Assembly: GCF_041248615.1 (NCBI RefSeq)
Contig: NZ_CP158426.1
Source of the DNA: Escherichia coli
Lineage (GTDB): Bacteria; Pseudomonadota; Gammaproteobacteria; Enterobacterales; Enterobacteriaceae
DNA: 64,000 nt
Reading direction: 5' to 3' (one strand)
Positions 9,001-12,000 of this stretch are shown in pieces. Numbering within the stretch: the stretch's first letter is position 1; each line of letters opens with the position of its first letter. The position numbers are program-made.

Positions 9001-12000
9001 CACGAAGGTTATGAGTAAGGGCGCAGACATTCCAGGCCAGCGAAGCATCGAGATTCAGTCCGGATGACTGGCGATCTTCCGGCAGATAAACCAGACCGCG
9101 CAGTAAACGTTCTCCAGTGGATAATTTATTGATCTCTTTACCATTCAGCATAATGCGTCCGCCACGCAAAGTACGCAGACCATAGAGCGTCTCGGCCAGT
9201 TCTGTGCGTCCGGCTCCCACCAGCCCAGCCAGGCCCAGAATTTCTCCGGCATTGAGCGTCAGGCTGACATTCCTGAAACCTTCGCCGGTCAGATTTTCCA
9301 GTGTCAGCACTGGCGTTCCGGCGGCATGTTGTGGGCGGTTGCCAGGTAATTCCAGCCATAATTTTTGGCTGGCAGAGAGCGATTTTTCCCGTAGCGCTGG
9401 CGTAATGGCCTGAATAATGTCGTCGGTAGACAGTTCGCTGGTTTTGCCGCTTAAGGCGATGGTTCCGTCGCGCATCACGCTAATTCGGTCGGCAATCTGG
9501 CGAATTTCCGGCAGCTTATGCGAGATAAAAACAATACCCACGCCAGTAGCAAGCAGCTCCCGCAAGCGAATAAACAAACGTTCGGTTTCGGCGGGAGTAA
9601 GCGAGGCGGTAGGTTCATCGAGGATCAGAATTCGCGAATCGCGCATCAGGCCGCGGAGGATTTCCACCATTTGGCGATCGGCAACATCCAGCGATCCTGC
9701 CAGACTATGCAGATCAAACTGGCAGCCCAGCGCCGCCAGTAAGTTATTCATTTTCTGTATGGAGAGCTGTTTTTTTGCCAGACCAAACAGGATGTTTTCT
9801 TTTATCGACAGGCTTGGAAAAAGCAGCGGTTCCTGGGGAACGAGATAAATGCCCAACTGATGAGCATGAACTGGCGTTAATCTGGTGTAGTTGTTGCCCC
9901 CAATCTCCAGCGTACCGCTATCAGCAGGGGTAATACCGGCAATAATCTTCATTAACGTCGATTTACCGGCCCCATTGCCGCCGAGCAGGGCGTGGACCTC
10001 CCCCTGATGCAACGTAAAATCGATGCCTTTCAGGACATTAACCCCTGAATACTGTTTATAAACCGAGCGGGCGCAAAGTAGCGGTAACGCGCGGGTATCA
10101 CTCGTTTGCATATTTCCCCCGTTCAGTTTTGCAGGTGAGTTTTGAACAAATGTATTTCTGCTTTTAATTTGTTCATAACCTTAGGTGGACATTGCACATA
10201 TTTCCGACGAATAGATCACAATTTATGCTATTTTGATTTTCACGGTTGCGTTTGTTCATGCTCGTAGAGTCAAACTGCGGTTGCCATCACAGATATAAAT
10301 GCGCAATAACTGAACAATTGCATTAAAGATTTAAGTATGTTCAAAGTGAAGAATGAATTATGACAATCAACGATTCGGTAATTTCAGAACAGGGAATGTG
10401 TGAAGAAGAACAGGTCGCGCGGATTGCGTGGTTTTACTACCACGACGGGCTGACCCAGAGTGAGATCAGCGATCGTCTCGGCCTGACCCGTTTGAAAGTG
10501 TCGCGATTACTGGAGAAAGGGCATCAATCCGGCATTATTCGCGTACAGATTAATTCTCGCTTTGAAGGCTGTCTGGAATATGAAACACAATTACGTCGTC
10601 AGTTTTCGCTGCAACATGTCCGGGTGATCCCAGGGCTTGCGGATGCTGATGTCGGCGGGCGACTAGGGATAGGCGCGGCGCATATGTTGATGAGTTTACT
10701 TCAACCACAACAGATGCTGGCGATTGGTTTTGGCGAGGCAACCATGAATACGCTGCAACGCTTAAGTGGTTTTATTTCGTCGCAGCAAATTCGCCTGGTC
10801 ACGCTCTCCGGTGGCGTCGGTTCTTATATGACGGGTATCGGACAGCTTAACGCGGCGTGCAGTGTGAATATTATTCCGGCTCCGCTGCGGGCATCCTCCG
10901 CTGACATTGCCCGTACGCTAAAAAATGAAAATTGCGTCAAAGATGTTCTGTTAGCCGCGCAAGCAGCGGATGTGGCGATTGTCGGCATTGGGGCCGTGAG
11001 TCAACAAGACGACGCGACGATCATTCGCTCCGGTTATATCAGCCAGGGCGAACAGTTAATGATTGGCCGAAAAGGGGCGGTTGGCGACATCTTAGGCTAC
11101 TTTTTTGATGCAAAAGGTGACGTTGTCACGGATATCAAAATACATAACGAACTGATTGGCTTACCTTTAAGCGCGCTGAAGACCATTCCCGTCCGGGTTG
11201 GCGTAGCAGGGGGAGAAAATAAAGCCGAAGCCATTGCCTCTGCAATGAAAGGCGGTTATATCAACGCACTGGTTACCGATCAGGACACAGCAGCGGCGAT
11301 TTTAAGTAGTTAAATTTGCATGACCTTATTACCGGGAATGATGGAGAACGTACAGAGGAACAGACAGAACGCATAAGCCGAGGATAATCTAATGGCTCGA
11401 CTCTTTACCCCTTCAGAATCAAAGTATTACCTGATGGCGCTGGATGCAGGTACCGGAAGTATTCGGGCTGTGATATTCGACCTGGAAGGCAATCAAATAG
11501 CCGTGGGACAGGCGGAGTGGCGGCACCTGGCAGTACCGGACGTTCCTGGTTCTATGGAATTTGATCTCAACAAAAACTGGCAACTGGCGTGTGAGTGTAT
11601 GCGCCAGGCGCTGCACAACGCCGGCATAGCCCCGGAGTATATCGCTGCCGTTTCGGCATGTTCGATGCGTGAAGGCATTGTTTTATATAACAATGATGGA
11701 ACACCGATCTGGGCCTGCGCCAATGTGGATGCCAGAGCGGCGCGCGAAGTTAGCGAACTTAAAGAACTGCACAACAATACCTTTGAAAACGAAGTTTATC
11801 GCGCCACCGGACAAACGCTGGCTTTAAGCGCTATTCCCAGATTACTTTGGCTGGCGCACCATCGTTCTGATATCTACCGACAGGCGTCGACCATCACCAT
11901 GATCAGCGACTGGCTGGCCTATATGCTCAGCGGCGAACTGGCGGTGGATCCCTCTAACGCTGGCACCACGGGACTTCTTGATCTAACCACCCGTGACTGG

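Follow-up and report, generated by a model that had tools for sequence, protein, structure and literature searches.

The lsrA-lsrR intergenic region

The window, by which is meant the whole 64-kb stretch of Escherichia coli DNA that was analyzed, carries the lsr genes. lsrA, the first gene of lsrACDBFG, lies on the minus strand (8576..10111; NCBIfam NF011967 equivalog, 955 bits, and RefSeq annotation). On the plus strand are lsrR (10360..11313; NCBIfam NF011947, 618 bits), encoding the SorC/DeoR-subfamily repressor that would bind the repeats described below, and lsrK (11392..12984; NCBIfam NF008187, 1002 bits), encoding the AI-2 kinase, the source of the inducer phospho-AI-2. LsrA, LsrR, and LsrK, together with LsrC and LsrD, were identified with NCBIfam equivalog models at scores far above the cut-off, and an E. 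coli locus identical to this one is annotated in RefSeq with the same gene identities. The LsrR of the window is near-identical to the protein of PDB entries 4GO1 and 4L5I. lsrA and lsrR are divergent, with ATG codons at 10111 (lsrA, minus strand) and 10360 (lsrR) and a gap of 248 bp between them.

Both members of a pair of inverted repeats, TGAACA-N21-TGTTCA, are located between these two start codons. Each is 33 bp long, with the starts of the outer hexamers 27 bp apart. Repeat A, TGAACAAATGTATTTCTGCTTTTAATTTGTTCA (10143-10175), begins 31 nt from the lsrA ATG, spans about -32 to -64 relative to it, and has the extended dyad TGAACAAAT...ATTTGTTCA; repeat R, TGAACAATTGCATTAAAGATTTAAGTATGTTCA (10311-10343), stops 16 nt short of the lsrR ATG. 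A preliminary description of this DNA had claimed two repeats with identical half-sites and identical spacing, one beside each divergent start codon, and both points are borne out: a pattern search finds these two exact matches and no others in the 64-kb window, where 0.01 would be expected by chance, and none of 100 dinucleotide-preserving shuffles contains at least two copies. Allowing up to two mismatches adds only two matches, both G+C-rich, at 25180 and 53071; since chance predicts 3.75 matches at this tolerance, the additional ones are at chance level.

Inverted repeats in the lsrA and lsrR leaders might instead work as RNA or DNA hairpins that act on translation or mRNA stability. The lsrA leader does fold into a 9-bp stem (-11.8 kcal/mol, z = -2.4), but the lsrR side does not fold better than shuffled sequence (z = -0.8), and a 6-bp stem closing a 21-nt loop is weak. 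Furthermore, complementarity is limited to the hexamers and is not maintained outside them (29-64% paired at positions 7 to 16 among 84 unique sites), and if transcription begins inside the repeats, as is proposed below, the 5' arms would go untranscribed. No terminator-like site was found. Given these results, we rejected both a hairpin and a terminator as explanations, and the chance that the hairpin reading is correct is judged to be negligible.

Conservation across the Enterobacterales

The lsrA-lsrR intergenic regions of 68 other Enterobacterales served as the comparison set. The motif is present with at most one mismatch in all 68 and as an exact copy in 63; the site adjacent to lsrA is found in every one of these loci at the same tolerance and is always the first site, while 44 have a second copy. 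In total, the 68 regions hold 77 exact sites and 114 with at most one mismatch, compared to 0.000 and 0.075 in shuffled sets. Among all 77 exact TGAACA-Nk-TGTTCA pairs, k is 21. The hexamers are conserved; the 21-bp center is variable yet A+T-rich, with strong conservation only at positions 7, 9, and 14 and partial dyad symmetry that reaches positions 7-9. Repeat A forms a conserved block in our alignment of the region (alignment A2) and is the best-conserved element of the intergenic region. Salmonella and K. aerogenes likewise carry the motif. It should be noted that this comparative evidence is independent of the literature on LsrR boxes.

TGAAC half-sites also adjoin distant lsrR homologues on alphaproteobacterial plasmids of Sinorhizobium and Roseicitreum. 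There, the inverted N21 layout is absent: Sinorhizobium has TGTTCA-N11-TGAACG, and Roseicitreum has an everted TGTTCA-N21-TGAACA. Thus, because these distant homologues share the half-sites but not the N21 layout, the exact layout is established for the Enterobacterales only.

LsrR and its SorC/DeoR relatives

LsrR combines a DeoR-type HTH with a SorC sugar-binding domain, as expected of a regulator with a SorC/DeoR-subfamily tetramer operator. PF04198 is present in all homologues, and the PDB matches of LsrR are LsrR itself, followed by SorC and DeoR. The LsrR DNA-binding domain aligns without gaps to that of DeoR (7BHY, 8R7Y), and the residues of DeoR that contact bases, R34 and R39, have as their counterparts R44 and R49 of LsrR, both unchanged throughout the 16 LsrR orthologues of alignment A1.

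The operator of Bacillus subtilis DeoR at dra-nupC-pdp, ATTGAACAAAATTTCAATTACCAATTTACATATGTTCAA, has the form TGAACA-N24-TGTTCA, and the DeoR tetramer binds the full operator only (PMC11229326; PDB 8R7Y, 7BHY). The two systems have in common the outer inverted TGAACA/TGTTCA around an A+T-rich center, a protein with an HTH and a sugar-phosphate-binding domain, and the conserved base-contacting arginines. They differ in spacer length (24 bp for DeoR and 21 bp for LsrR), in effector (deoxyribose-5-phosphate for DeoR and phospho-AI-2 for LsrR), and in arrangement: the single DeoR operator overlaps the -35 region, and the divergent lsr promoters are served by two operators, or three in Salmonella. 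According to PMC11229326, E. coli LsrR in the crystal is a DeoR-like tetramer (PDB 4GO1), the tetramer structure known for LsrR from the literature being that of the apo protein. In a review (PMC9143355), LsrR is said to repress as a tetramer and to be a dimer when AI-2-P is bound. A 33-bp repeat with hexamers at its ends fits the bipartite tetramer operator of the SorC/DeoR subfamily, which spans about 33-45 bp and presents its terminal recognition elements on a single side of the helix. B. subtilis CggR, of the SorC/CggR type, is also a tetramer (a dimer of dimers) on a bipartite operator of roughly 45 bp downstream of the transcription start, and its effector splits the tetramer; in contrast to LsrR, its DNA-binding domain is a winged HTH, and its operator consists of other repeat sequences arranged as direct repeats.

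Published LsrR boxes

By published accounts (Xue 2009, Cell Res 19:1258, as summarized in PMC5137460 and PMC8487509), LsrR occupies two boxes between these genes and represses lsrR as well as lsrA. The motifs said to be crucial in the p-lsrR box, as later papers quote Xue 2009, are AACAAT and AAGATTTAA; those of the p-lsrA box, as given in PMC8487509, which comes from the group behind the original footprinting, are AAAACT and AAAACTGAA. Boxes and repeats agree in locus, in protein, and in there being two sites, one by each divergent gene. They differ in that the boxes, as these later accounts present them, are A+T-rich motifs of 6 bp and 9 bp without dyad symmetry, and in that the lsrA-side motifs are placed 1-21 bp outside repeat A.

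On the lsrR side, the two descriptions coincide. Repeat R contains both p-lsrR-box motifs (AACAAT at 10313-10318 and AAGATTTAA at 10326-10334), and the published box, at -237 to -197 from the lsrA ATG, corresponds to 10308-10348. On the lsrA side, the published motifs map to the minus strand of the lsrA 5' leader at 10122..10143 (AAAACTGAA from 10130 to 10122, AAAACT from 10143 to 10138), beside repeat A with a 1-bp overlap, and repeat A contains neither of them. Judged by position, this discrepancy would count against repeat A as an operator; if the footprint covered solely the p-lsrA-box bases, then repeat A would not be the footprinted site. Accordingly, one might postulate that repeat R is the sole LsrR operator of the pair and that LsrR binds the lsrA side at AAAACT-N7-AAAACTGAA, with repeat A having another purpose or none. 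However, the stretch 10122-10143 is not conserved between genera in alignment A2, even among close ones, while repeat A is retained throughout the comparison set and shares half-sites and spacing with repeat R, the holder of the accepted motifs. Furthermore, the lsrA motifs as published resemble what an alignment of two protected regions would yield (both boxes read as 6 bp-N7-9 bp) more than a conserved signal, and if AAAACT were replaced, the repeat A TGAACA would lose its first T as well. Consequently, restriction of LsrR to repeat R is considered unlikely.

In a full-text literature search for LsrR together with TGAACA, the TGAACA-N21-TGTTCA dyad was not described for LsrR among the matches listed. 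The relevant matches were a primer sequence in one paper and the DeoR paper. The dyad may already be listed for LsrR in curated databases, e.g., RegPrecise or RegulonDB. A loose LsrR motif of quite another kind, NNNTTTTNN--NNNTTTTNN, has been proposed in a 2026 paper (PMC13393413), a point against the reading adopted here. The p-lsrR-box mutations obtained by error-prone PCR (Hauk 2016) were dropped as evidence of LsrR binding, the selection strain LW6 being an lsrR knockout.

CRP-like sites and putative promoter elements

Two CRP-like sites sit between the repeats. Site I (10205..10220, minus strand, center 10212.5), which reads TGTGATCTATTCGTCG on the lsrA strand, has a perfect left half (TGTGA) and a poor right half; its GATCAC is invariant in alignment A2, and a TCAC followed by A or G starts 41-42 nt after repeat A in 63 of 65 loci. 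CRPI and CRPII boxes have been named in this region (PMC5137460), and site I appears to be one of them. Site II, TGCGGTTGCCATCACA (10276..10291, plus strand, center 10283.5), is a conserved block in alignment A2 whose counterpart in other genera is TGTGG-N6-TCACA, and its match to the consensus suggests that it too is a CRP site.

Both promoters are CRP-regulated, and the region has been proposed to contain a CytR site (PMC5137460), which might favor the idea that the repeats themselves serve not LsrR but some other regulator, CRP or CytR for example. The CRP recognition sequence, however, is TGTGA-N6-TCACA, a 22-bp dyad that TGAACA-N21-TGTTCA does not resemble, and the separate CRP-like sites are themselves conserved. 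Moreover, the motif travels with lsrR across genera, its TGAAC half-sites recur beside the distant lsrR homologues, and DeoR, a homologue of LsrR, reads identical hexamers. The repeats were rejected as CRP sites, given their different half-sites and 21-bp spacer, and assignment to any regulator other than LsrR is judged highly improbable.

From conservation and geometry, we infer -10 elements and transcription starts for both genes. A putative lsrA -10 hexamer, TAAGGT (10178..10183, minus strand), lies 2 nt upstream of repeat A on the lsrA strand, and TAnnnT occurs here in 52 of 69 loci; lsrA transcription would then start near 10171, inside repeat A, with CRP-like site I at about -41.5. The AACAAT of the published LsrR-binding motif (10313..10318, plus strand) may double as the lsrR -10 hexamer, and GAACAATTG is invariant in alignment A2; in this case, lsrR would start near 10325, with CRP-like site II again at about -41.5; were CRP to act from -61.5, the predicted lsrR start would be near 10345. 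A scan of the region for consensus sigma-70 promoters gave no match; the proposed elements consequently rest on conservation and CRP geometry only.

Probable LsrR operators at both promoters

The two repeats are very probably the two high-affinity LsrR operators of the lsrA/lsrR control region; each 33-bp site would be bound by one LsrR tetramer, so that both promoters would be blocked until phospho-AI-2 releases the repressor. The earlier suggestion that LsrR is the protein acting at both promoters is thus strengthened by the literature on two boxes, by conservation across 68 loci, and by homology to the DeoR operator. The present analysis contributes the sequence, its conservation, the fixed spacing, and the homology to the DeoR operator and DNA-binding domain; LsrR binding at two boxes here, the LsrR tetramer, and its release by phospho-AI-2 are taken from the literature. 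Regulation of lsr by LsrR at two sites has already been described and is textbook-level; the observation is correct but largely ordinary, with no new biology.

In the model that follows from this reading, each site would hold one tetramer, a dimer of dimers of the SorC/DeoR type. The outer DNA-binding domains may read the invariant TGAACA and TGTTCA, and the inner domains may lie on the A+T-rich center. Operator A would cover the lsrA start, just downstream of the TAnnnT -10 element, and operator R would cover the lsrR core promoter and leader; with both promoters covered in this way, bound LsrR would block RNA polymerase at each. Activation would come from the two CRP-like sites between the operators. 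Phospho-AI-2, produced by LsrK, would bind the sugar-binding domain and weaken the tetramer, and since a dimer would be unable to span half-sites 27 bp apart, avidity would be lost and both promoters would open.

Among enteric bacteria, the lsr switch is the standard circuit for AI-2 quorum sensing, and it is much reused in synthetic biology. A precise definition of its operator (a 33-bp dyad with invariant hexamers, a fixed 21-bp spacer, and fixed 83- or 168-bp phasing) could permit rational design and tuning of lsr promoters. Such a definition would also help to screen claimed "global" LsrR targets, which now rest on loose A+T-rich motifs (cysP, ahpC, and katG are among the additional targets claimed), and would reconcile the E. 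coli data with recent SorC-family structures.

Spacing of the probable operators and a decayed middle site

In all lineages, the operators are either 83-85 or 166-168 bp apart. Operator R lies at +166 to +168 bp from operator A in Escherichia, Citrobacter, Kluyvera, Salmonella, Pantoea, Affinibrenneria, and others, and Salmonella has three operators. In E. coli, a decayed middle site, M (TGCTAT-N21-TGTTCA, 10226..10258), is found at +83 bp from operator A. Its right half-site is intact (10253-10258) and its left half is degenerate; it aligns with the TGAATA-N21-TGTTCA sites of Kluyvera, Serratia H1w, Entomohabitans, and Salmonella. The E. coli site falls below the PWM threshold, set at the 99th percentile of shuffles, and because of this score, it is probably non-functional.

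This spacing allows another, more tentative hypothesis: instead of two boxes that act independently, the lsr control region could hold as many as three LsrR tetramer operators in a phased array. In repression, the tetramers would then contact one another or the DNA would form a loop with both CRP sites inside it, and, as a corollary, the published lsrA-side box would be offset from the real core operator. We consider such an array possible, though rather doubtful. In its terms, A, M, and R stand 83-85 bp apart, or about eight helical turns, with all three kept in Salmonella; in E. coli, where M has been lost, the 168 bp from A to R amount to about 16 turns and leave the two operators on the same face of the helix.

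Inverted repeats in the lsrA-lsrR region

The region between the divergent genes lsrA and lsrR contains two inverted repeats of the form TGAACA-N21-TGTTCA, repeat A at 10143-10175 (TGAACAAATGTATTTCTGCTTTTAATTTGTTCA) and repeat R at 10311-10343 (TGAACAATTGCATTAAAGATTTAAGTATGTTCA), which were identified by direct reading of 9900-10600 and by a pattern search of the whole 64-kb window. The exact search returned these two matches and no others, confirming the coordinates, half-sites and 21-bp spacing of the preliminary description and its placement of one repeat beside each start codon: the lsrA ATG is 31 nt from where repeat A begins, and repeat R stops 16 nt short of the lsrR ATG. 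In dinucleotide-preserving shuffles, 0.01 matches are expected and 0 of 100 shuffles had two; when up to two mismatches are allowed, just two more matches, both G+C-rich, appear elsewhere in the window, the number expected by chance. Shuffles of the window and of related intergenic regions exclude a chance origin.

LsrA (8576-10111, minus strand), LsrR (10360-11313, plus), LsrK (11392-12984, plus) and, downstream of lsrA, LsrC and LsrD are NCBIfam equivalogs far above cut-off, and the RefSeq gene order is uxaB-yneE-tam-lsrGFBDCA / lsrRK-autotransporter-hipBA. Several E. coli chromosomes carry the lsr region with 100% identity, and 4171 of 5426 complete E. coli genomes have it at no less than 95% identity. 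Between lsrK and hipBA lies an intact type V autotransporter of 1806 aa (13514-18934, plus strand; 'ECSE_1600 family autotransporter' in RefSeq) with an ESPR signal peptide, pertactin, autochaperone and beta-barrel domains. Its K-12 counterpart, ydeK/yneO, is presumably a pseudogene.

Conservation of the repeats

An alignment of 16 LsrR orthologues, 63-80% identical to the LsrR of the window, was used to collect 80 loci from species-representative genomes, of which the 68 with a divergent lsrA-lsrR intergenic region form the comparison set. With at most one mismatch the dyad is present in all 68 regions; 63 have an exact copy and 44 have two or more sites. In total there are 77 exact sites (0.000 in shuffled sets) and 114 with up to one mismatch (0.075 in shuffled sets), and each of the 77 exact hexamer pairs keeps a 21-bp spacer even when any spacer of 8-39 bp is allowed. 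Salmonella enterica and Klebsiella aerogenes have the same conserved-hexamer site. The 21-bp centre is variable and constantly A+T-rich; its only strongly conserved positions, 7 (A), 9 (T) and 14 (T), define an extended half-site, TGAACAAnT. A ten-genus alignment spanning the entire intergenic region has these conserved blocks: the start and Shine-Dalgarno of lsrA, repeat A, GATCAC, a middle site, TGTGG-N6-TCACA, repeat R, and the Shine-Dalgarno of lsrR.

The idea that the repeats work as RNA hairpins deserves almost no credence: fold z-scores are -2.4 and -0.8, complementarity beyond the hexamers is not maintained (29-64% paired), and a search of the lsr region for a terminator-like site found none. 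It is also very improbable that a regulator other than LsrR binds them, given that the repeats do not match the CRP pattern, that they travel with lsrR, and that in Sinorhizobium and Roseicitreum TGAAC half-sites, in other arrangements, lie beside distant homologues of lsrR.

Relation to the published LsrR boxes and the DeoR operator

LsrR binding at two lsr intergenic sites has been known since 2009. PMC5137460, citing Xue et al. 2009, describes two "boxes" in the lsr promoter region through which LsrR represses the operon and lsrR itself. It gives the lsrR-side box, or p-lsrR-box, the coordinates -237 to -197 relative to the lsrA start codon, equivalent to 10308-10348, and names AACAAT and AAGATTTAA as its crucial motifs; these lie at 10313-10318 and 10326-10334, both within repeat R. 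The motifs of the lsrA-side box, or p-lsrA-box, AAAACT and AAAACTGAA (PMC8487509), fall on the lsrA strand at 10138-10143 and 10122-10130, next to repeat A in the leader of lsrA and overlapping only the first base of the repeat. Both boxes share one format (6 bp-N7-9 bp), suggesting an origin in the alignment of two protected regions. If the published lsrA-side box were the real site, repeat A would not be; however, the box stretch is not conserved in the ten-genus alignment whereas repeat A is, making this reading unlikely. Among papers in the searched library that mention both LsrR and TGAACA, none ascribes the dyad to LsrR, and the LsrR motif proposed in 2026 is loose and T-rich only (PMC13393413). 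Claims of additional targets (cysPUWAM, ahpCF, katG) are based on motifs that are short and A+T-rich, among them AACAAT, AAAACT and NNNTTTTNN (PMC13393413, PMC8487509); none of these papers mentions the conserved 33-bp dyad.

LsrR belongs to the SorC/DeoR subfamily, and apart from its own, the nearest solved structures are those of SorC and B. subtilis DeoR. The DeoR operator, ATTGAACAAAATTTCAATTACCAATTTACATATGTTCAA (PMC11229326), parses as TGAACA-N24-TGTTCA. DeoR occupies it as a dimer-of-dimers tetramer, does not bind either half-operator alone, and reads the outer TTGAACA through base contacts made by R34 and R39 (PMC11229326). The DNA-binding domains of LsrR and DeoR align without gaps, and once a 5-residue tag offset is allowed for, these residues correspond to LsrR R44 and R49, invariant across the 16 orthologues. 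The apo-LsrR crystal is a tetramer similar to that of DeoR (PDB 4GO1, as described in PMC11229326). The two systems have hexamers, overall layout and contact residues in common, making LsrR the natural reader of the repeats, but they differ in the spacer, 24 bp for DeoR and 21 bp for LsrR, which is a difference between lineages.

Taken together, the dyad in all 68 regions, the box motifs within repeat R and the DeoR homology support the earlier proposal that LsrR binds both promoters. The incremental points are that LsrR sites take the form of 33-bp dyads of the DeoR type whose N21 spacer is invariant, that on the lsrA side the motifs in the literature are displaced from the conserved dyad, and that the phasing of the sites is 83 or 168 bp, Salmonella having a third site and E. 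coli its relic.

Promoter anatomy and repression

A putative lsrA -10 element, TAAGGT (TAnnnT; 10183 to 10178, minus strand), lies 2 nt upstream of repeat A, and 52 of 69 loci have a TAnnnT hexamer at that place. Judged from 8-nt flanks, it is probably 1 nt further out in the 12 loci with ATCTTT (the Yersinia-type flank). A CRP-like half-site, TGTGA (10220 to 10216, minus strand; site centre 10212.5), starts 41-42 nt past repeat A in 63 of 65 loci. With TAAGGT as the -10, lsrA transcription would start near 10171, within the TGTTCA arm, and the CRP-like centre would consequently be at -41.5, a class II position. On the lsrR side, the conserved CRP-like TGCGGTTGCCATCACA (10276-10291, centre 10283.5) would likewise be at -41.5 from an lsrR start near 10325 if AACAAT (10313-10318), where GAACAATTG is invariant in the ten-genus alignment, is the -10; alternatively, the arrangement may be class I, the start then being near 10345. 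We infer these starts and -10 elements from conservation and CRP geometry. In either arrangement both operators would overlap a core promoter or start site, so that occlusion of RNA polymerase is the simplest mechanism. In this model, an LsrR tetramer on the operators would occlude polymerase at both promoters, and phospho-AI-2 would weaken the tetramer and release it (PMC5137460 and PMC9143355; by analogy with CggR and DeoR).

The promoter-up mutation of Hauk et al. 2016, TGTGCAAT to TGTACAAT (10191-10198, minus strand), was explained by a putative CytR site (PMC5137460). It turns a TGCAAT context into TACAAT, and an adjacent C-to-T mutation gives TGTAAT, each of which agrees with the -10 consensus TATAAT at 5 of 6 positions; gain or strengthening of a -10 element is a simpler account than loss of CytR binding. 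The same paper reports that error-prone-PCR selection enriched lsrR-side box mutations, mostly in TGCATTA (10319-10325, within 10308-10348), and suggests that lost LsrR binding raised lsrA-direction expression. However, the selection strain, LW6, is described there as an lsrR knockout, and the increase therefore cannot be due to loss of LsrR binding. If repeat R contains the lsrR core promoter (with AACAAT as -10 and the start near 10325), these mutations may act by relieving interference that the divergent promoter exerts.

Phasing of the sites

When a PWM built from the sites was scanned over all collected intergenic regions, inter-site distances were of two kinds only, 83-85 bp (46 cases) and 166-168 bp (13 cases), despite region lengths of 223-487 bp and an lsrA start lying 11-175 bp from site A. 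Three clear sites in steps of 83-84 bp occur in Salmonella, Serratia H1w and Entomohabitans; in Salmonella enterica (1281-1479 of its locus, L083) the steps are exactly 83 bp, with exact sites at 1281 and 1447 and TGAATA-N21-TGTTCA at 1364. The middle site is present but weaker in several other genera, and Photorhabdus, Xenorhabdus and Morganella have only site A and the middle site. In Escherichia the strong sites are A and R, separated by 168 bp, and E. coli has at 10226-10258 a decayed middle site, TGCTAT-N21-TGTTCA, scoring below the PWM threshold. Because the distances are multiples of about 10.4 bp, the sites would lie on one helix face. This might tentatively be taken to reflect cooperativity, through tetramer-tetramer contacts or looping, a doubtful reading; the spacing could equally be imposed by an inherited ancestral layout in which operator, -10, CRP and operator are fixed in place.

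In Yersinia loci (L026, L037, L039 and others), the second site has a spacer of 20 bp instead of 21 bp (one mismatch) and is located +85 bp from site A instead of +83 bp; its downstream half-site keeps its absolute position and the upstream half is displaced. Distant lsrR homologues (40-44% identity) are preceded by the hexamers in the opposite, everted orientation: TGTTCA-N21-TGAACA, again with a 21-bp spacer, on Roseicitreum antarcticum plasmid pRA01 (L082, 2148-2180), and TGTTCA-N11-TGAACG on Sinorhizobium meliloti p_2 (L081, 2230-2252), with another TGAACG at 2299-2304.
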